Source: an uncultured Chthonomonadaceae bacterium (lineage in GTDB: Bacteria; Armatimonadota; Chthonomonadetes; Chthonomonadales; Chthonomonadaceae). From it: DNA of 64,000 nucleotides. Positions within the stretch are counted from its first letter, which is position 1; every line of letters begins with the position of its first letter. The notes under the pieces are model-generated. The model was not told where the DNA came from, ran no database searches, and worked only from the letters and a program-made list of their open reading frames with translations. The stretch spans positions 352,001-416,000 of the forward strand of contig CAWFQB010000014.1 in assembly GCA_963817895.1 (NCBI GenBank), read 5' to 3'. Below, piece after piece: positions 1 to 18,713 of the stretch. Made by a program: the position numbers and the translations under genes.

Positions 1-1230
1 CCACGCCCCCACCCTCGTGGTGGTGCCAGGTGGAACCTTCCTCAGTGTATGCTGGATCCATCTGAGTGGCTCGCCAATTCGCATATTTAAACTGCACCGA
101 ATCTTTCTGATGCCACATATCATTGTGAGTTACACCAGTATCTGGGTCCGTCCACTGTTGCGGCGTCTGAAACTCGATGGGTTCTCCTTGTGCATTGGTA
201 CGAACTACGCTGGAGAAGTCTGCGTATTTGCGCGGACCAAGCGGCGTATTCACAGTTGTGACTGGAATGTTGGGAACCAAATTTTGGTCTATCGCCTGTT
301 GCCTGATTTGCATCTGCTCCGAACGAGGAATGGTGTCAGAGTTGAAATGGTCAGCCCACCGCCAATCAGTGTCTGAGTTTACCATGTCCGCATAGCGTTG
401 AGCGCGCATCGGGCGCAGTCGCTCGTCGCGTTGTGCAGGTGTCTCATTCAGGGGTGCGCTTGCATCGCTTTGAGCAATGGCGTCGCGTTGTGCCTGTGTC
501 ATTGGGGGCGGGTCGCTCGACCGAGTCATGAACCGAGCATCAGCATCCGTGTTGCCGAAGCCTCTCCCCTCGGTTGCCCCCCCTGAGCCAAAGTTGTCAT
601 GGCCGACGATGTATCCGTGATCGTTGATGGGACTACCTGGTACTTCACCTGGAGGGAACACACCCTTATCGTTGAAGTGGGTAATATCGCCTGACCAGTC
701 AATAACGGCTTCGGGACGCGCTCCCTCAATTGCCCTTCCATTGGCGGTAGCCGCCTGTTTAGCGTTCACATCAATGCCGAAATGCCCGTGGTCGTCCTCG
801 TAGTTGCCTCGGTTAGTTACCTCAACCGGGTGTGTATGCGCTACCCACACCTCATTGTCGCCAAGAGATTTGGGGTTGAGTGACTCCTCGTTTCCCATTA
901 CGGCGCGCAGTTTACCGGTATTGACATCCTGCGCTACGCCGACTTCTTTGCCATACCATTTAGATGCTTGTGCCAAGTCGTCCGTGTGTACGCCGTTACC
1001 CAGCGGCGCTTCACCCGTTTCCAGCGCTTTCACCAACCGCTTGGCGCCGCCGTTCATTTCGTGGAACTGCATGTCCGACGAAAGGTTAGGGGCTTGCGTA
1101 TTGCGGGAGATCCCGCGCTCGTTCATAACGCCTTCCGGCAAGCCGCGCCTGGCTCCAAACAGGCGTTCGGCAGGTCCGGCGGCGAACGGCATCAACTGGC
1201 TGCCCGCTTCTTCACTTGCATACGCACCCA
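1..1230 (-). CDS. C-terminal toxin region of the PAAR effector (JAB/MPN-like domain followed by WHH-type HNH nuclease); runs off the window edge
   Basis: Not in the ORF track. Hand translation of the minus frame has no stop from ~1228 to position 2: GAYASEEAG...KEVGVAQD...EVWVAHTHP (~827-838)...RKYADFS...QFKYAN...GSTWHHHEGGGV (WHH at ~20-28). Continues the 1212..2051 ORF after a frameshift near 1228. Confidence 0.8.
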
Positions 1231-2051
1231 GAACTCCCTTTGCCAAAAATCTTCTCCCCTGCCCATCCGAATGCTGCCCCTCCGCCTTTGCTCAAGCCAT
1301 AGCCTGCGCCTCCCTTGAGCGCAACGATTCCGGCAGCCCGAACTGCCGCCAAGGTACGCGTTGTATTGGTAATCGCGGCGCCGGACGTTGCCGCGCGCGC
1401 CAATCCTTGCGCATATAAACCCGGCAACTCCCCTAATAGGCTGACGATGCACATGGCTCCGCCAATGATCTGCATCGCGTTCCCCACAACAATAGCGCTC
1501 TGCGCCAATTCCTCCAAGAGTTCCGGCACCTCGCTGTCAATGTGAGCGCAAGCGGCCATGCCGCCGCCAATAAAAACGTCAGGACTGCCCTTGCCAATTT
1601 CGAAATCACAAGTGCCGTGATCACTGACGCGCGATGCCATTTTCATGTTGATGAATACGCAGTCGCTGCCGGTTGCTACCATAGAGTTCGGCCCATGCTG
1701 ATTGCAGTCAACCTTGCTGCCGCAGGCAATTGCAGCAGGTATATTGTTAACGAAAACATCGTCGCTGCCCGTCAGGATGTTTCCACAGGGCGTTGTGTGC
1801 TTGCGTCCTTCTTCCTCTCCTTTGAAGAAACCATACCCAGCCATCGAAAGTACGCCGCCCTCAGAAGCAATCACTGTGCCTGCAATGGCAATCAAGGCCA
1901 GTGTGCCGGTTCCGGCAGTGGCTACTGTTAATGCAATCACGGCCGCCCCAATGACAGCGCCAATAAGAGCGCCCTCCAAAGCCCCCCAGAGGGCGGATGA
2001 GAGCGCCTCGCTATGTGTTACCTGATCTCCTACGCGCGCTGCTGCCGGCAC
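1212..2051 (-). CDS. prePAAR/TMD/PAAR effector, N-terminal part
   Basis: Starts MPAAARVGDQVTH (prePAAR AARxxDxxxH), then hydrophobic Gly/Ala helices, then a PAAR domain (ILTGSDDVFVNNIPAA...GSDCVFIN..ASRVSD..C...IGKGSPDVFIGG), then a second hydrophobic region. Directly downstream of the VgrG-like gene. Confidence 0.88.
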   Translation of the reverse strand: MPAAARVGDQVTHSEALSSALWGALEGALIGAVIGAAVIALTVATAGTGTLALIAIAGTVIASEGGVLSMAGYGFFKGEEEGRKHTTPCGNILTGSDDVFVNNIPAAIACGSKVDCNQHGPNSMVATGSDCVFINMKMASRVSDHGTCDFEIGKGSPDVFIGGGMAACAHIDSEVPELLEELAQSAIVVGNAMQIIGGAMCIVSLLGELPGLYAQGLARAATSGAAITNTTRTLAAVRAAGIVALKGGAGYGLSKGGGAAFGWAGEKIFGKGSSGCVCK

Positions 2052-2178: not shown

Positions 2179-4015
2179 TTATTTCTCATCGCAGTTGAGG
2201 AGAATGACTTTGCCCTTGGCAACAATCGCATCCGTGGAGGTGAGGCCTACACCTGCGTTGCCGTCCACCGTAACATACTTTTCATCAGCTTTGACGTTCA
2301 CGCTCTGCTTGGCATGCAGTCCAATACTGCCTGTTTCCACCTGCGAGACAAAATTATTTTTAGCCTGCATAGCAATGTTCTCATCATCAGTCTTCAGCTC
2401 CATTACGTCACCAGATTGCGCCAACATCGTAATCTTTTTCGCTTGGATGTGCAAATGGTTTTGCGCATAAATAAGCATGTCGTTGCTGCCACGCAATTCC
2501 ACGCGGGTTCCATTTTTGTTGACGCTGATGTGCAGGCTATCGGCTTCGCTGCCGCCACTCAAGATGCTGACATGATGCCCGCCGCCATCCGTATGCGCTT
2601 CCAGAATGGTTTGACCTTTGTTCTTCATGCGAACTACTTCGTCCGCGCCTCGCGTCGTCATCGTCACTTCGTTGCCACTTGGCGTACTCCATCGTTTCGT
2701 GTGCTTGGGGTTGTTGGTGGTCTTCTGGCTGGTGTGGCGCACCGTTCCCAAGATCACCGCTTCGCTGTCCCAATCCCCTAAGAACTCTACCAGCACCCGC
2801 TCCCCCACTTCCGGCACACTGTAAAACCCGCTGTACGCGCTGGACTTCTTACCGCCGTCATGCCCGCCCCCATACGGCGTCACCTGATGCAGCCACGCCC
2901 GATCACCAGAAGGCTGCGGGTCCAGATGTTCCCACTCGAACTCCACCTGAATACGCCCCCTGCTGCAAAGGATCATGCTCGTTAGCCGTGACATTCGCCC
3001 ATAACGCGCGGCTCGGCCACTCAGGACGCTCTTTGTGCGGCGGAAGAGGTAGCGTCAAGGGTTGCAGCCACAACTCCTGTGTTCCCGTCGTTTGTTCCGG
3101 GTGTCCCACGATGCGCGTCTGGTGAATGAGATGCTGCTGACCCTCGAAAGAAACCACCTGCCCCGGTTGAAACGGCAGCACCATGCCTTCCAAGCGCAGG
3201 TAGTAGCCGCTGATGTCGTTGTGTCCCTTCGTGTTGCTCACGTTGCTGGTGATGTCGGGACGTTCGGGAGCCTGCATGTAATCGGCGGTGGTTCGGCTGA
3301 GTTGTCCTAAATGCTGGCTGGCCTGCTGACGCGCCAGAGCTGTTGGGCCGCTGCCGCCGCTCGGAGGTTCGGGCAGAGTATGCAGACTGCCGCCGAAACT
3401 CACTTCCGCCCACCCGAAGTTGATGTCGGGGAACGTTTCACTCGCTTCCTGTCCTCTGGCTCCTAACTGCACATCCCCGGTTCTGTCCACAACCGCGACA
3501 GGAACGCTCCACGCATGGCACATTCTTGCGAGGTACTGGTAGTCGGTTTCGAGGTACTGCAAACTCAGGGGAATGGGCTTGGCAAGATCGCCCGCGTTGA
3601 CGATCTTGAAGCGCGGTTCGGTTTTGGCGACCTGCTGCGCGATGTCAAGCAGGGTCGTGGCCTGAAACGCGCGATGGCGCGGCACAAGATCGGTACGCTT
3701 GCTGTAGCTGACGCAGGAGAGTGTCAGGCGCGAACTGTTGGCGTCGCGCTGACCCGACGTGTTCTCCACATACCCGTGAAAGCAGTTGAGCGCTTCCACC
3801 AGATCGTTGTCTTTCCAGTTCACGTCAACCGGGCAGTTGAGCGCTTTGCCCGCGAGCATGGCGGTCGGACGTTCGCCGTAGTGGTTGTGTTCCTGCCAGC
3901 GCCACGTCAGATGGGCGCGGGTATGCTCGTACAGATGGCGTTCCACCACCACTTCCGTCAGGAACTGGTGCGCCCCCAACTCCTCCATGCCTGCCACGTC
4001 TACCTGAAACGCCAT
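2179..4015 (-). CDS. vgrG: VgrG-like spike protein (gp27-like N-terminus, gp5 OB-fold, beta-repeat tail); frameshift near 2960
   Basis: ORF 2903..4015 has LQYLETDYQYLARM and ends ANVTANEHDPLQ. ORF 2179..2994 continues GRIQVEFEW...AWL..VTPYGG...GFYSVPEVGERVLVEF...VILG, typical phage-baseplate-V/VgrG motifs. Confidence 0.85.
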
Positions 4016-4159: not shown

Positions 4160-4642
4160 TCATCGCGACCACAACCTGCGCCGCCGCGATGAACTTCCCG
4201 ATACGAGGCGCGTTACGAGGGGTTCGGCTCGGACTTCGCCTGCCGCGACGGTGAGAATGTTCTTGCCGTCGTAATCCACGTTGTTATGCACCAGTGTGCC
4301 ACGAACCAGCAACTCAATGAAGTTGCCCTGATCCGTCTGGCTTCCCGACTGCGGCGGGAACTCCTTCTCCGTATAGCTCTGGATGTACGCCTTGTGCAGC
4401 GTCCACGTATGGTTGACCACGCGGGAACGATCCATCGTTTGCAGCTCGACGGTCTTGAAGCGGCCCGCGCTGTGCGGAGCCAGCGCCCACTCGGCGATCA
4501 TGGTGTCATGGTCGAGCGGCAGGCTGATGCGGAACTGCTGCACGGGAATCTGCATGGGTTCTTTCGCGTCGCCATGCGTGATCTCCACAGTGGCGTCTAA
4601 GACGCGGTTGATTTTGGTACCTTGAATGGTTAATCCGGGCAT
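4160..4642 (-). CDS. Hcp/TssD-like tail tube protein (putative)
   Basis: Start at ATG 4642 (MPGLTIQG) after GGAAAGGA. ~160 aa, beta-rich, with IAEWAL...FKTVELQTMD...HTWTLHKAYIQSYTE matching the tube pattern W...K.VEL....W.L..A.I.SY. Lies between the sheath-like gene and vgrG. Confidence 0.7.
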   Translation of the reverse strand: MPGLTIQGTKINRVLDATVEITHGDAKEPMQIPVQQFRISLPLDHDTMIAEWALAPHSAGRFKTVELQTMDRSRVVNHTWTLHKAYIQSYTEKEFPPQSGSQTDQGNFIELLVRGTLVHNNVDYDGKNILTVAAGEVRAEPLVTRLVSGSSSRRRRLWSR

Positions 4643-4952: not shown

Positions 4953-7602
4953 TCAGAAGTTGATGCGGAATTCATCAATCAGACCCTGCTCGAAGCCGAA
5001 CGCGACTTTGAACGAATTTCCGTTTTCCCGCTGCACGGTGAACTCGCTGCCCTCCTGCAATTTGCTGGGGAACGAGTTGACCAGTTTTTCCGGCGAGTAC
5101 CATTTGCCATCGCCATCCGCGTTGCGGGATTTTGGCGCCCATTTAATCAGATACTCCAGATGGCCGCGCAATTGCGCTTCCGCCTGCGCATTATCCGCCG
5201 GCCACGCGCCCCCGAAACCGAGTTCGTGCGCCGCCCGCAGCAGGCGGTTCAAGTAAACCTGCTGCCGGAACAGATGCAGATGCCGGTACGAAGTGGTTCC
5301 GTCCGCAAGATTCAGGCGGCGCATGGTGCGCGGCACGGACAGGAACGGCGAACGTCCCGATACGTGCGTGAACACCAGAAACGGCATATCCGGGTTCAGC
5401 AGGTTGCTCAACACGCCGTCATTAAGAAAGTGATCTGTCGGCAGATCAGTTTCGCCAAGGTAAGGGTTCGTGGCAAGGTCAATGCCGACGCCCGGCAGGT
5501 CCGCCCGCATGGACGTGACCTCCTTACGCGCATGTTGCAGTTTGCGCCGCACGTAATCGGGCACGTCGTTCGCCATCAGCCGCCCCGCCGCCACAAAACA
5601 CGAGCGCACCGTCAGTTCCGGCACGTCCACGCCGATTTCCACGCTGCCATCCGCGGTTTTGCCCGTAACCAGTTTGCCATCCGGCGGCATGATCATAAAA
5701 TCGGGTACGCACAACACGCAGCAGTCCGCCGATTCCTGCTCCACAACCTGGTCAATGGCATACGCATCGCTCAGGTTTTGGAAGAAGTCCCGTTGCGCGC
5801 GTCCCGCCCGAACCCGCTCTTCGGGCGAAAACAGGATTTGGAAGCCGTATTGCGCGCCCCAATCCATCAGTTCCAGCATCTCATCTTTATACGTGACGCG
5901 CCCGTACCCGTCCTGATCCTGTAGACCGGCTTCCTGCGCGGCCTCAATGGACGCCAGAATGGGGTCGTACAGCATAATGCTCTCCTGCTTCTTCTTTTTG
6001 GCAGGGCGGCTCTTGCGGAACTCCACGACATTGGGCACGATGACAAACGAAATGGCATCCCGGAACTGATTGGTCGCCTGCGCGCAAACGATGTCGAAGT
6101 AGCGCTTCAGTTCTTCGGGCCGGGTCAGGAATAGATCGGGCAGATCGGCATTGGCGATTACCAGTTCCGGCTTCATGCCTTCCGCCAGGCGCACATCGGA
6201 GGGAAATTCATTGAACAGCAGATACACGCCCATGATGGTTTCAAACAGCGGCGTGACGACTTTCAGGAAATCCCCGATGGCGTTGCTGTACACGCCCAGA
6301 AACATATCGTGGAAGTGATCTATTTCCTGCGCGTCCGGGTTCAGCAGAGCGCAGTTCTTTGGGATTTTGCAGCACGGTCGCCACCAGATTCCCCATCAAG
6401 CGGCTGAATCATGCCCCGGCTGACCATCTGATCCATAAACTTGCCGACCGCGATAGGAAACCGCTTCTCCTGCGGCACGAGGGAAATATCCTGATTGGCG
6501 ACTTTTGCGCCCTCCTCGCGGATTTTATCCAGCGCGCTGACAACAGAGCGTACGGCGATGTTCGGTTTGCCCTTGCTGCTGTCGTGGGCGGCTTTATCCC
6601 CGGTCTTGCTCAATGCTTCGTGATCTCCGGTTTTCGCCAGCGCGCCCTTGCTCTTTTCCCGCTTTGCCCTCTTCCTGTCCGGCTTCTATTTGCGGGGCGG
6701 TCAGGTTTATCGCCGGCGATACTTTTGCTGCCATTGTCCAACGCGGCCGGGGGCGCGACGGCTGTCGGCAGATGCTGCGGCGAAGCGATAAGCTGCTTGT
6801 TTTTGCCGAACTCTATCTGATAGACATTAAGGTCCATTTCGCCATGATGCTGGGAAGCCGTTTCAATTCCCGGCTGGTCTGTTCCAAACCATACACGACA
6901 GTCGGCAGCATGCGCACGCTGTCTTCCAGCGCGCCCTGAAACTCATCCGCCACGCCCTGATACGCTTCCAAGGCGCGAGCGGTATCTTTGGAGCCGGGGT
7001 TGCGCTTGGCTTCCAGCATCAGCCGGTCGTTTTTTACCTGCACATCTTCGGCCAGTTTGCGCATCAGCGTTCCGTTGGTTTTTTGGTTTGAACGCGAACA
7101 GCGAGGCATCCACATCCACGCGGAAGGTAGATACATCCTGCCGCACACGCTTTTTAATCAGGTCGGTAAAGCAGCGGATATAGGGGTGATCCGAGGTAAT
7201 GCGCACTTTTTGCCAGCTGCCCCACCCTCAAGGGAGAATTCCAGTCCAGGCGCGTTTGATCCCTGACTCTGCGCCATTTGCTTCCGAGCCGTCCTCTTCC
7301 TGTCCCTCAACGGCTCGCGGTCCGGCCACGCGGTAGTAAAATCCCGGCTGAAATTTGTCCAGAAACTCGCGGAAGGAGGTTACTGTCAGATTTTCGCGCA
7401 CTTCTGCGATAAACTGCTCTTCGGACGTGTCGTTGATACGCGCCAGCATAGTTTCCAGCGAAGGCGTCAGTTCGCGCTCTTCAAGGGGCAGTTCCGGGTC
7501 CAGATGCTCGTCCATGTTGACACGGGCGAATAGTATGGCGCGGTTGGTTTTCCCCAACATTTTGCGATTGGCTTCCAGAATAGTTTCATTCGTTATCGGC
7601 AT
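4953..7602 (-). CDS. Large divergent contractile sheath-like protein (~880 aa), broken by several frameshifts
   Basis: Overlapping or adjacent ORF pieces 7228..7611, 6943..7206/6813..7148, 6610..6837, 6341..6613 and 4953..6305. ATG 7602 preceded by AAGGA. C-terminal piece has sheath-like motifs LCVPDF...RSCFVAAGRLMAND (cf. PPSG..AG..A..D) and PRTM...YRHLHLFRQQVYLNRLL (cf. ARTL...WRY.NVRR...I). Confidence 0.6.
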
Positions 7603-7668: not shown

Positions 7669-8365
7669 TTAATGGCCTGATGTTGAGGCGAACAACCGGC
7701 CTAACACTTCAGCCAGCCAGAAGTAGCCAATCAGAAGTCCCACAACCAGGGCCACACCATAAAGCGCGTAGGGCAGCCAGGAAACACGGGGTCGCAGCAG
7801 CAAGCGAGCGCGGACGGGAAATTCATTCTCCGGGGCGTCTTCCCATCCGGGCCAACACCGCTCATCCGCCAGCGAACGATCATGCGCAATGTGCTTCCCC
7901 TTGTGCGTATGCAGGTTGAAACAGCCCGGACACTCCTCAGAAACCAGAAATCTCCGCAATGATTTCCCTGACCGGCGCTTCCGCATTGATGTAGATACGC
8001 TCGGATTTCGTTTTCAGCAGATTGGCCGGGTGGACTTGATAGTAGTCGCGCCGCAATACCAACGTAATTTCCTGAGACGCGCCTCCTAAATCAGCGGCCT
8101 GTGTCTGCAAGGTGGTGAGGAGCGCGTCCCGCCGCAGCATAACATCATTGAACCAGAAGTGCCGCGAAGCGCGTACCTTCTCCAGTGTTTTCCGTTCGCG
8201 AACGACTTCATTATGATTGACACAATCCTGATACAGTTCGGCAAAGTTTCGATGGGTCGGATAATTACGCATCCAGAACGTGCCCGCTTTGGGCAGTTCG
8301 GGGATACTGATGCGAATATCTACGGTTTGCTGAAGAGATTGTGTGTTTTTATCCAGTAACGCCAT
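7669..8365 (-). CDS. Hypothetical protein with putative ubiquitin-like (YukD/EsaB-like) domain(s) and C-terminal TM helix; frameshift near 7950
   Basis: ORF 7937..8365 joined to 7669..7986 gives ...ERIYINAEAPVREIIAE/FLVSEECPGCFNLHTHKGKHIAHDRSLADERCWPG...RARLLLRP (beta-grasp-like pattern), then the hydrophobic segment WLPYALYGVALVVGLLIGYFWL. Confidence 0.5.
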
Positions 8366-13919: not shown

Positions 13920-16900
13920 ATGCCCGATTCGCAGTTGCCGCTTCCCCTTGCGCAGCCACATTATAACCACCAACTGTTTTCCGACTACTATCTAAACCAC
14001 ATTCTGCCCGCGAATCCGGCGTGGCCGCTGTTGCGCGAGGAAGCGTCAAGCGCGAAACAAACCCTTGCCGCCATTTTCCACAATTACACGCCGAGCGGCA
14101 ACGAGGCGCAAACGGAAGACGATCTCATCAAGCCGATTTTGAAGGCGTTGGGGCATATCTTTGAAGTGCAGCCGTCCCTGAAAACGCCCGGAAGCGCGAA
14201 CAAGCCCGACTACGTTTTTTACAACGATGTGGACGCGCTCAACGCCAACAAGGGCCGTATGCTCACCGACAGCCTGCCCACGCAGGGCGCGTATGCCGTT
14301 GGGGACGCCAAGTATTGGGAACGCCCGCTTGATATTACCCTCAAAGACAGCAGCAAGGATAAAAACAGGGACGCGCTTTCCAACAAAAATCCCTCGTACC
14401 AGATCGCGTTTTACATGCAGCATAGCGGCGTGGAGTGGGGATTGCTCACGAATGGCAAGCAGTGGCGGCTGTACCACAAAAGCACCGCGCACAAACTGGA
14501 CCGCTATTATGAGATTGACCTTCCCGCCCTGCTTCAATCGGACAACGACGTGGATTTTCTCTACTTTTATGCGTTCTTCCGCCGAGCCGCGTTTTTCTCC
14601 TCCGTCCTGAACCTGAATGACCTGTTGAAGGCAAGCGTGGAGTTTGCCCGCGACATCGGCGAGTCGCTGAAATCACAGGTATACGACGCCCTTCTGCATA
14701 TCGCGCAGGGCTTTCTCGACTTCGCGCCCAACCATCTGCAAACCGACACGGACGGCCTGAAAGCCATTTACGACAATTCGCTCATCGTGCTGTACCGCCT
14801 GCTGTTTATCCTGTACGCCGAAGACCGCAACCTGCTGCCCGCGCAGGAATCGGGCGAATACAGGGACACGTACAGCCTCCACGCCATCAAAAACACCGTC
14901 GCGAAAAATCTGGACAGTGGCCGAACCCTGCTTGCCGACAGCGCGCGAATGTGGGCGCAATTGCAGGATTTGTTCCGCATCATAGATCAGGGCAGCCCGC
15001 CCCTGCGCGTCGCCACGTTCAACGGCGGCCTGTTCGACCCGCATAAACACCCGTTCGCGGAACAGTATAAAGTGGGCGACAAACGTTTACAGCAGGCCAT
15101 AGACAAACTCGCCCGCGTCAACCGCCAATTCGTGGATTACCGTGACCTCTCGCCGCGCCATTTAGGAACCATTTACGAGGGATTGCTGGAATTCCATTTG
15201 CAAGATACGAAAGGAGAAACCGTAGGGGCGCTGCTTGCTGCGCCCTCCTCCAACCTTGCGCCCTCCTCCAACCTTGCGCCCAACACGCCAATCCCCTCAA
15301 CTCTCAACTATCAACTATCAACTCTCCTCACTCTGCGCAACGACAAGGGCGAGCGCAAAGCGACGGGTTCGTACTACACGCCGGATTACATCGTGAAGTA
15401 CATCGTGGAGGAGACGCTGCATCCGCTTCTGGAACGCGCCCTGCAAGCCAAACGGGACGGCGCAATGGACGATGCGGCCTGCATCGAAGCCGTTCTGGAT
15501 ATTCGCGTTCTTGACCCGGCAATGGGAAGCGGGCATTTTCTCGTGGAAGCGACGGAAACGCTGGCCCGCGCCCTCGTGGATATGGGCGTCGCGCCGCAGG
15601 AGGCCACGACGGAAGCGGCCGATTTAGCCTACTGGAAGCGGCGGGTGGCGCAGTCGTGTATCTACGGCGTAGACCTCAACCCGCTTGCCGTGGAACTCGC
15701 CAAACTTTCGCTGTGGCTGACGACGGTTGCTAAAGACCGCCCGCTTTCGTTCCTCGACCACCATCTGCGCCCCGGCAACGCGCTGATTGGCGGGCGTCTC
15801 GCGTCCCTGCAAAACGTCACGCAGTTGCGGTTCGCGGGAAGCGGCGCGAAGAAACCCGCGCCATCGAAAAAACACGCGAAACAGGAACAAGCGGGGCAGA
15901 TTTCCATGCTCAGTGACGATGATTTCCGCCTGAGCATGACCGACGCGGTTATCAAGATGTGGGACATCGAGTATCGTGGCAGCGAACAGCGTGGCGCAGG
16001 TGAAAGCGCAGGAGGCATTGCACCGGGAATTGCAGGCGGAACTCAGCGGCAAATACGGGCGTCTGGCCGATCTGGTTACGGCAACCCATTTCGGCGTTTC
16101 GTTCGACGCGGGGTTCTGGCCGGAACTGGCGGATTTTGCGACCGGCCGCGCCCTGTCCCTGCGCCCCGAACTGGCGGCAAAACTGGACGCAGGCGGAAAT
16201 TCTGGCACAACGCTACGGCTTCTTTCACTGGGAACTGGAGTTCCCGGAAGTGTACTTCGGGCGCGAGGGCGAACCGCTTGGCGAAAACGCGGGCTTCGAT
16301 GCCGTTGTCGGCAATCCGCCCTGGGAGCGCATCAAATTGCAGGAGAACGAGTTCTTCAGTTCCCGCTCCGACGCCATTGCGCTCGCGCCCCGCGCCAGTG
16401 ACCGCAAGCGCCTGATCGCCGACCTGCCTCAATCCGACCCGGAGTTATGGCAGGCGTACAAAGCGGCGAGCGGCACGGGCGGAAGCCACCTTGAACTATG
16501 TGCATCGCGCCGGAGTGTATCCGCTCATGGGGCGCGGCGACACCAACCTGTACGCCGTCTTTGCGGAAAAAGCCCTGCAATCCGTGCGGGCGAACGGGCG
16601 CGTGGGCCTGCTGGTTCCGAGCGGCGTGGCGACCGACGACACCACCAAGCACTATTTTCAGGAACTCATCACCAAACGCAGACTGGCCCAATTGCTGGAC
16701 TTTCGAGAACCGCGAACAGATTTTTCGCCGATGTGGACAGCCGCTTCAAACTCAGCATCCTGCTGATGACCGGGGAAAGTGACCCGCAAGACCAAGTGCG
16801 CTGCGGCTTCTTCCTGCACAACATGGCCCAACTGGAAGACCCGGAGCGCGTCTTTACGCTGGCCCCCGAAGACTTCAAACTGTTCAATCCCAACACGCTC

Positions 16901-17950
16901 ACCTGCCCCATTTTCCGCCGCCGCCGGGATATGGAACTGACGCGCAAAATCTACGCCAATGCGCCGGTTCTGGTGGAGCAGAGCAAGGGCGAGGCAGGCA
17001 ATCCGTGGGGCGTCTCGCTTTTCCACCATGTTCCACATGACCAACAACTCGAGCCTGTTCAAAACGTCTGCGGAAATGGAAGATGAAGGGTTCTGGCTCG
17101 GCGCGGGCAATGTCTTCACGAAAGGCGCAGTTCGCTTCCTCCCGCTTTATGAGGGCAAACTCGTGCAGATGTACGACCATCGGGCGGCGAACATTGTAGT
17201 CAATCCAGCAAACCTGCATCGTCCCGCGCAGCAAGTCGCCGCAACCCTTACCGAACATCAGGACACTGAATATAGCCCGACGTGCCAGTTTTGGGTAGAC
17301 CGGCAGGATATTCTCAGACGCGCGCTGACAATCTTCCTCTCTGGCGTCTTGGGTTTAGGGACGTGACCGCGCCCACGAACGTGCGAACCTTTATTGCCAC
17401 TGCGCTTCCCTCTTTCGGGTTCGGCAACAAATCCCCCTGATTACATTTACGGAAGAGCGATAAACGTAAACTCGGCTCATGCCTGCTGGCGAACCTCAAC
17501 AGTTTCGCAATGGATTATGCCGCGCGGCAGAAGGTTGGCGGGCAAACGCTCAACTTCTTCATTGTGGAGCAATTCCCGGTGCTGCCGCCCGAACGGTACG
17601 CGGAAGAGTGGCACGGCATGGCGCTTGCCGATTTCATTGCGCCCCGCGTCCTCGAACTCTGCTACACGGGGCTGGACCTCAAAGGCTTTGCCGAGGATAT
17701 GGGCTACGACGGCCCGCCCTTCTGTTGGGACGAGGAGCGCCGCCTGCACCTGCGCTGCCAACTCGACGCGCTGTACTTCCACCTGTACGGCCTGACCGGG
17801 GACGAAGCGGGCGAAATCCTCGCCACCTTCCCCATCGTTCAGCGTCAGGACGAAGCCCGCTATCAGGGACGCTACCGCACCCGCGACCTGATACTCGCTT
17901 ACATCCGCGCCTTTCTGGCAGGCAATCTTGATGCGTGGGTCAGGGGATAA
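13920..17950 (+). CDS. Type IIG (Eco57I-like) fused restriction endonuclease/N6-adenine methyltransferase; several frameshifts
   Basis: N-terminal PD-(D/E)xK-type KPDY...GDAK and [47 protein letters not shown] (motif I); [30 protein letters not shown] (motif IV); C-terminal LPLYEGK...YDHR and [12 protein letters not shown]. Confidence 0.9.
15221..15324 (+). repeat. REP-like GTAG palindrome, 18-bp tandem repeat and heptamer repeats inserted in frame in the R-M gene
   Basis: gtaggggcgc-tgcttgct-gcgccc; tgcgccctcctccaacct x2 plus a partial copy (15239-15281); tcaact(c/a) x4 (15297-15324). Translated as [35 protein letters not shown]. Confidence 0.75.
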
Positions 17951-17974: not shown

Positions 17975-18361
17975 CTACCAGATTGTCTGAACGGCGTATT
18001 GTTGAATGAGCGCGTCCATAGTCACAATCGGCATGTTTTCCGAACGGCTTTGCGCAATGAGGATGCGGTCGAATGGATCGCGGTGAATTGGCGGCAGGTT
18101 GTACACTTCAAGCGCGTGTTCAAACAGGATAGGCAACAGCGCGAAGTTATTCGCCTGAACATGTTTGCGGATATAGGCTTCAGGCGGCAGATTAAAAACC
18201 AACTTCCCGGTTTGTGCTTTAATGATGATTTCCCACACGCTGACGACACTGAGATAAATCGTATTGGCGGGGTCTTGAATTGTTTGCCGCGCCGGCAGCG
18301 AAAGGTTGGGGTGATTATCATTCCACCATAAAAACGTGTGGGTATCTATCAGCCCTCGCAT
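17975..18361 (-). CDS. vapC: VapC-family PIN domain toxin
   Basis: LIDTHTFLWW, SVVSVWEI..K, HRDPFDRILIAQ. Confidence 0.92.
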   Translation of the reverse strand: MRGLIDTHTFLWWNDNHPNLSLPARQTIQDPANTIYLSVVSVWEIIIKAQTGKLVFNLPPEAYIRKHVQANNFALLPILFEHALEVYNLPPIHRDPFDRILIAQSRSENMPIVTMDALIQQYAVQTIW

Positions 18362-18621
18362 GGCAAGACCTCTCCCTTATAAAATTCATCAAGCCAGTCG
18401 TCAGGCATAGGGCCATCGAAATCAGGCGCCATCCACATCTCGCCTTTACCAAGTCCGGGAACACGAGCAGGCATTACAACCTGTTTGGCCTCCGGCATGG
18501 CAACAGGCATCAGGCGTATGGCAGAAGCGCCCTCGCGGGTAATGGTCACTTCCTCGCCGGTCGCCGCTTTTTCGAGAAGATACGCAAGTTGCGCGTTCGC
18601 TTCTTCAATGGTCACTGTCAT
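18349..18621 (-). CDS. Phd/YefM-family antitoxin
   Basis: MTVTIEEANAQLAYLLEKAATGEEVTITREG...RVPGLGKG.MWMAPDFDGPMP; overlaps the vapC start. Confidence 0.88.
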   Translation of the reverse strand: MTVTIEEANAQLAYLLEKAATGEEVTITREGASAIRLMPVAMPEAKQVVMPARVPGLGKGEMWMAPDFDGPMPDDWLDEFYKGEVLPCEG

Positions 18622-18713
18622 CAGGGTTCGCCTCTCATTATAACGCATGGAAAAAGACGCGAATGGTATGTACCAGCGTTTCGCCTGTTGATTTATTATA
18701 CCGCTACGCCCTC

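Follow-up and report, generated by a model that had tools for sequence, protein, structure and literature searches.

The window, a stretch of 64,000 nucleotides from an uncultured Chthonomonadaceae bacterium, contained one frameshift-broken gene for a protein of about 870 residues on its minus strand, predicted to be the subunit of a contractile sheath built from a single chain. Together with its neighbours, the gene probably belongs to a T6SS-like, cell-anchored machine with a one-chain sheath, a reading that we place at roughly 60%. T6SS sheaths are made of two chains and recycled by ClpV, and the machine has been held to be a Gram-negative trait.

The reading path began with the ATG at 7602, ended with the stop at 4953 and was spread over all three frames; some 10 bases before the ATG lay the sequence GAAGGA. 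A frameshift-aware alignment with three intact relatives required 8, 8 and 7 single-base breaks, respectively, located at about 7260–7290, at 7216–7219, 7071 and 6847, once or twice at 6635–6702, and at 6400 and 6351. All breaks were thus found between about 7290 and 6350, within 1.0 kb, and the path contained no in-frame stop relative to any of the three relatives. Identity to the intact 866-residue relative P0001 was 81% (693 of 854 aligned residues). When the C-terminal 450 residues were used as query against proteins of 789–2250 residues, the search recovered 59 intact homologues of 819–922 residues with 38–83% identity. The view of the original prediction that the fragments tile one gene was therefore confirmed, and its quoted motifs were located at 7548–7528 (TNRAILF), 7389–7372 (LTVTSF), 5714–5697 (LCVPDF) and 5288–5268 (YRHLHLF).

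The seven or eight frameshifts are most likely assembly errors, since the assembly itself was error-prone: among 110 genes with an orthologue in a congener (249 ORFs sampled), a minimum of 29 were split over frames, and genes for Clp ATPases and Hsp70 lay in up to seven and five pieces, respectively. Contigs of relatives aligned at 80%, which represent other strains, differed by one base at 6351–6352, 6397–6401 and 7070–7073. Among the public read runs checked for polishing, none contained more than 8% of the sequence words, and no RNA run was among those listed. An improbable alternative is that, within a family of true sheaths, the present gene is a pseudogene and its cluster is decaying in this strain. 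The concentration of the breaks in 1.0 kb would fit such decay, as would the broken F3, VgrG and PAAR genes nearby, and the breaks are known from the assembly alone. Against it stand the split orthologues and the fragmented Hsp70 and Clp ATPase genes of the same assembly, as well as the retained identity and the lack of in-frame stops. The coordinates of the gene, its parts and its neighbours are given in Table 1.

Table 1. Predicted parts of the one-chain sheath and genes of the surrounding cluster, in window coordinates unless otherwise stated.
Feature	Position	Strand	Basis
Predicted single-chain contractile sheath gene, ~870 aa	4953..7602	-	Frameshift-aware alignment, homologues, fold
N-terminal ~170 aa	7085..7602 (approximate)	-	Alignment to single-chain sheaths, pLDDT
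Helical hairpin, 78 residues, aa 173–250	6850..7085	-	Model; length-invariant in near family
Disordered P/G/A/S-rich linker, aa 251–345	6550..6850	-	pLDDT <50
Helices, aa 346–417	6335..6550	-	Model; just before segment superposing on VipB residue 61
TssC/VipB-like body, aa 417–866	4953..6335	-	Superposition on VipB
F3, ~215-aa conserved protein, C-terminal hydrophobic segment, frameshifted	7669..8365	-	No family match
Tube protein (gp19/Hcp-like)	4160..4642	-	PF06841 E=0.026, below cut-off
VgrG spike with a frameshift near 2960	2179..4015	-	Phage_GPD E=5e-11, Phage_base_V E=1e-7
prePAAR/PAAR protein, then putative nuclease toxin in other frame, off window edge	1..2051	-	PAAR E=6e-10, Colicin-DNase E=0.08
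TssF/G/K-like, F7 and F6 genes, second VgrG, probable immunity genes	G000:C14:338-352 kb (beyond window)		

The assignment as a contractile sheath is firm as a prediction. An AlphaFold2 model of P0001, built with 58 sequences, had a pLDDT of 75.9 and a pTM of 0.75, with disorder at residues 98–114 and 252–343. In Foldseek, T6SS sheath chains occupied ranks 1–8 (best E=1.1e-4), followed by Streptomyces CIS, PVC and phage sheaths, and the viral matches were tail sheaths. VIA-align against 48,161 chains returned 27 sheaths at Z 11.5–19.0 (196–341 aligned residues, rmsd 3.5–5.7), whereas unrelated rows did not exceed Z 8.8. In agreement with the original prediction, the frameshift-aware alignment and the model, with its Foldseek and VIA-align matches, thus support one oversized single-chain contractile sheath. 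In the ESM Atlas, unnamed clusters found most often in Bacillota ranked first, followed by a cluster of VipB/EvpB with a score of 0.92 and 185 of 256 features; the recognition value of 1991 was below the 2300 mark, making this match weak.

Sequence-family searches did not recognize the protein. Pfam returned only weak, unrelated families for the sheath pieces and their homologues (best E=0.02), NCBIfam and PHROGs gave no match for the sheath, and PDB sequences yielded designed helical bundles but no sheath. The VipA and VipB models found nothing in the genome. HHalign of the sheath against TssB and TssC alignments of 10–11 sequences was not significant for either, and the best N-terminal profile match, to TssB 68–86 in the expected register, had P=0.04 compared to 0.05 for the reversed control. 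This absence of a family match, the raw ORF pattern and the database name of the Clostridia homologues would suit a set of separate small genes, or else a protein other than a sheath, for instance a transcriptional regulator. Such a reading is very improbable and was largely refuted by the frameshift-aware alignment and the structural matches: 59 homologues are intact, the 27 sheath structures are well separated in Z from unrelated rows, and the gene adjoins those for the tube and VgrG.

The sheath-like part extended beyond the last 250 or so residues to which it had originally been limited. Residues 417–858 superposed on VipB/TssC 61–475 over 350–352 residues (Z 18.4–18.6, rmsd 4.6–4.7). Furthermore, the alignment with most single-chain sheaths paired model residue 14–19 with chain residue 19–35 and ended at about residue 855, which places the TNRAILF strand in the sheath core and contradicts the idea of the N-terminal half as a separate appendage. 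The N-terminal ~170 residues comprised an arm helix, the core strand TNRAILF, a V-x-SF-x-EF helix, a beta-hairpin bearing a variable acidic loop of 13–69 residues, and a further helix. Residues 1–30 had a pLDDT of 84–94 in the full model but 45–53 when the first 170 residues were folded alone, as expected of a piece that completes the sheet of another. The isolated fragment had a pLDDT of 62 and a best Z of 3.2, with no TssB row, and the ESM Atlas gave no usable match for residues 1–250; these negative outcomes do not mark the region as novel. The model is consistent with this region holding the position of TssB.

Between the two sheath-like regions, the 78-residue hairpin retrieved generic coiled-coil matches only (Z up to 8.8), and the linker, 60–114 residues long among homologues, had a mean identity of 27%. 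The helices that follow appear to be placed like the N-terminal helices of TssC. In T6SS sheaths, domain 3 is composed of the TssB C-terminal helix and the TssC N-terminal helices; it is situated in the outer layer, serves as the target of ClpV and is missing in R2 pyocin (PMC5807055). Judged from residue ranges only, residues ~135–460 may correspond to an enlarged outer domain 3. The extra mass would then be an internal insertion of hairpin, disordered linker and helices, where the end of TssB and the start of TssC form domain 3. The simplest reading, also from ranges only, is that a TssB-equivalent, a linker and a TssC-equivalent are likely joined in one chain with domain 3 enlarged. The proposal of extra domains decorating the sheath surface was partly supported: an exposed position can be inferred from that of T6SS domain 3, but the additional mass forms an internal insertion. 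A functional TssB–TssC fusion was not borne out by passages of PMC3840085.

Z-scores did not separate the sheath types, as those of T6SS, eCIS, archaea and phages were tied within about one unit (17–19). The protein shared with the single-chain sheaths (Streptomyces CIS 9gtp and 8bl4; PVC/Afp 6j0b and 6rao; R2 pyocin 3j9q; Halogeometricum CIS 9ezm; T4-like gp18) its single polypeptide and a common core whose first strand lies at residue ~16–24. It differed in being about double the length of the PVC, Afp and pyocin sheaths, and its insertion was helical rather than beta-rich; the insertions of gp18 are beta-rich. The main, though less likely, alternative is a phage- or eCIS-type sheath that acquired a helical insertion independently and serves a cytoplasmic or released CIS, as in the Streptomyces or Haloferax systems, its TssC likeness being convergent or ancestral. 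A single chain is found in all non-T6SS sheaths, and the Z-scores reached 19.0 for Streptomyces CIS and cyanophage A-1(L) and 18.6 for the Halogeometricum sheath. The tube protein was nearer to gp19 than to Hcp, neither TssM nor a ClpV above the cut-off was found in the 81% complete genome, and the cluster encoded membrane proteins, all of which suit a CIS of this kind. In contrast, Foldseek put T6SS first, and the superposition on VipB chains was longer (350–352 residues, compared to 280–341 for eCIS, pyocin and phage sheaths, although these also used the N-terminal strand) and took in the helix entering domain 3.

Gene content also argued for the T6SS-like machine over a CIS of that kind. 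The cluster contained TssF/G/K-like genes rather than baseplate-J/gp25, and of the eCIS genes looked for (gp25, baseplate J, LysM tube initiator and AAA ATPase) none was recognized among the conserved genes of the core cluster. Sporadic LysM proteins occurred after VgrG in two loci (L024, L025). Capsid, terminase and tape measure genes of a prophage tail were absent from the conserved neighbourhood, and no homologue of the sheath was found in plasmids, 50,697 phage records or viral contigs. The same genome had a separate, conventional eCIS-like locus with gp25 (E=7e-27) on contig C1 (G000:C1:~292000-312000; L116, L117), in which tube-, LysM- and baseplate-like ORFs, followed by membrane-anchor-looking ORFs, were discerned by eye. 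In a second congener, an eCIS-like ORF set abutted the cluster tail to tail (L094:6-5439, G002:C44), with CRISPR RAMP-like ORFs on the opposite side (L095), both by eye.

The gene order in the window was F3, sheath, tube, VgrG and PAAR-toxin. Past the window followed genes that probably confer immunity, another VgrG, itself partial, with its cargo, and then F2, F4, F5, F7 and F6. F3 occupied two frames, as did VgrG compared with an intact 620-residue relative, and the tube protein was 79% identical to that of a relative. In a survey of 46 loci, some of them duplicated or close kin and with counts limited by flank length, F3 lay upstream of the sheath in 33 of the 38 loci with enough flank, and in 34 of 40 the next gene downstream encoded the tube. 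F2, F4, F5, F7 and F6 were present in 24, 24, 21, 19 and 19 of the 46 loci, respectively. Genes for PAAR-toxins and lysozyme/lipase-type cargo came after VgrG. Hydrophobic segments were predicted in 33/38 ORFs for F3 and in 19/19 each for F7 and F6.

Pfam gave no family match for F2–F7. In profile–profile comparisons, F2 matched TssF (P=0.002), F5 matched TssK (P=0.003, with 262 columns aligned starting at the N-terminus) and F4 matched TssG (P=0.02); in each case the named template scored best among those completed (10, 4 and 4, respectively). Reversed controls were negative (P=0.72 for F2–TssF, 0.33 for F5–TssK and 0.38 for F4–TssG), and the HHalign probabilities of the TssF, TssG and TssK assignments were only 14, 2 and 10%. 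The order F2-F4-F5 reads F-G-K. These profiles suggest that F2, F4 and F5 may be TssF, TssG and TssK. The tube profile did not match Hcp (P=0.25). F3 matched TssL with P=0.009, over the hydrophobic tail only; F7 and F6 gave no such match, and a four-sequence TssA alignment had no profile match among F2, F3, F5, F6 and F7. A predicted complex of sheath and F3 scored 0.01. F3, F7 and F6 are candidate membrane anchors in place of TssJLM.

Several loci deviated from this arrangement. In L078–L082, the sheath was without a recognizable adjacent tube and was followed by caspase-domain proteins instead (scanned in L078, L079 and L080); in L077 and L083, too, such proteins flanked the cluster. L018 and L019, after the sheath, and L096:691-1982 had tube-like genes in tandem, two or three in number and one of them of ~243 residues, and this group encoded a 1400-residue OmpA/peptidoglycan-binding protein after VgrG. 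In a congener with a chromosome-size contig of 6.1 Mb, the entire cluster was on another contig of 326 kb that may be a megaplasmid (G001:C3; L088, L089), with a Ser/Thr kinase-FGE protein between the VgrG cargo and F2. Elsewhere in the window, sequence motifs indicated a frameshifted fused restriction-modification gene (methyltransferase-endonuclease-like; 13920-17950, plus strand), followed by a PIN/antitoxin-like pair (17975-18648, minus strand).

The closest known sheaths were those of T6SS-i, TssB/TssC (VipA/VipB; 3j9g, 5myu, 5n8n), grouped with Francisella IglA/IglB (3j9o; IglB Z 15.2). Likenesses were the superposition on VipB, a helical insertion at the domain-3 position, and neighbouring genes for VgrG, PAAR-toxins and proteins with a weak likeness to TssF/G/K. 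The predicted model contained domains 1 and 2 of the core fold of the sheath superfamily, and its gene was linked to tube and VgrG genes. Unlike T6SS-i, the sheath was one chain of 820–920 residues with 10–12% identity, carried the 78-residue hairpin and the disordered linker, and had no VipA/VipB Pfam match. The TssB/TssC split was not found: all 59 near homologues were single chains, and both halves were joined in 95 of 97 distant ones. PF14331 (TssM) had no match in the 81% complete genome, and a TssE-like gp25 was not linked, the only gp25 match of the genome being that of the eCIS-like locus on another contig, although a diverged TssE could have escaped this search. Pfam likewise gave no match to T6SS ii, iii or iv genes for the sheath or F2–F7. 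The machine would work like a T6SS, but the unsplit sheath and the failure to find TssM, a linked TssE or ClpV set the cluster apart from a canonical T6SS.

Regarding ClpV, 0 of 13 matches in the 81% complete genome exceeded the TIGR03345 cut-off and none was in the cluster. The best match scored 817.8 against the cut-off of 884.95, had a stop inside and was probably ClpB/C. The wording of the original prediction, a recycling or chaperone docking site distinct from TssC–ClpV, agrees with the absence of a ClpV above the family cut-off. In three loci (L026, L075, L078) the gene order was Hsp70, F3, DnaJ, sheath, and L080 and L082 had ORFs of matching sizes and order, by size only. In the window genome, Hsp70 genes were elsewhere and not beside the cluster. 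Only the flanking of the sheath by Hsp70 and DnaJ in some relatives hints that the insertion might have a docking role for a chaperone or in recycling.

In the proposed machine, one-chain sheath subunits would wrap the tube on a TssF/G/K-like baseplate, held at the membrane by F3, F7 and F6. Contraction would push the tube, with VgrG/PAAR toxins at its tip, into adjacent cells, and the exposed linker and helices would offer a handle for disassembly of the sheath. That disassembly is performed by Hsp70/DnaJ where these are encoded alongside, and otherwise by housekeeping chaperones, is speculative: reasonable as a guess, but less likely than not.

The gene was found in 19 of 401 genomes of the phylum, 12 of them within one genus, a patchy spread as for a conflict system. 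Of 21 relatives with titles, 18 named Armatimonadota or its subgroups. One record labelled Janthinobacterium lividum (L011) carried a cluster at 71% identity with the Armatimonadota gene order and is probably a mislabelled bin. HMMER over 1.84 billion representatives yielded 239 proteins at E up to 0.001; among the 97 distant homologues of at least 640 residues, the N-terminal profile was detected in 95 and the C-terminal profile in all 97, in one chain. Two of the 20 clusters looked up were named by organism: one, labelled 'transcriptional regulator', came from uncultured Tyzzerella, Lachnospirales and Clostridiales, the other was a Defluviitaleaceae hypothetical protein. The Clostridia 'transcriptional regulator' proteins (e.g. 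WP_317357701.1, uncultured Tyzzerella sp.; cluster representative E=5.5e-22) shared the QTNRTILF / VxSFxEF N-terminus, likewise combined the two halves in a single chain, and by these sequence features are considered true homologues of the sheath family. They differed in a median length of 728 residues and ~17% identity, and formed a clade separate from Armatimonadota. Their genes presumably lie beside those for 'membrane-associated protease 1', Hsp70 and DnaJ. A third, long-branched clade consisted of homologues of 865–897 residues (P0101, P0113, P0126, P0154). The within-family FastTree (68 of 110 rows) is descriptive only, and TssC, eCIS and phage sheaths, whose sequences do not align, were kept out of it.

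The system could even be an undescribed T6SS-like class, although this is less than an even bet. It would have an unsplit TssBC chain (kept or regained), its own membrane anchors for TssJLM and Hsp70/DnaJ for ClpV, and would occur both in Armatimonadota of soils and hot springs and in Gram-positive Clostridia of the gut, where it would be hidden as a 'transcriptional regulator'. No description of the system was found in the literature, with subscription papers and bioRxiv supplements largely outside the scope, and the Clostridia system may already have been described elsewhere. Sheath-based surveys would miss the family, because Pfam, NCBIfam and PHROGs do not match its sheath. If the reading is true, a TssC-like sheath that naturally consists of one chain and is accompanied by TssF/G/K-like genes could connect phage and eCIS sheaths with T6SS, and the question of how TssB and TssC came to be split would become testable. 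With homologues in Clostridia of the gut, the microbiome may contain a contact-killing machine that has been overlooked.
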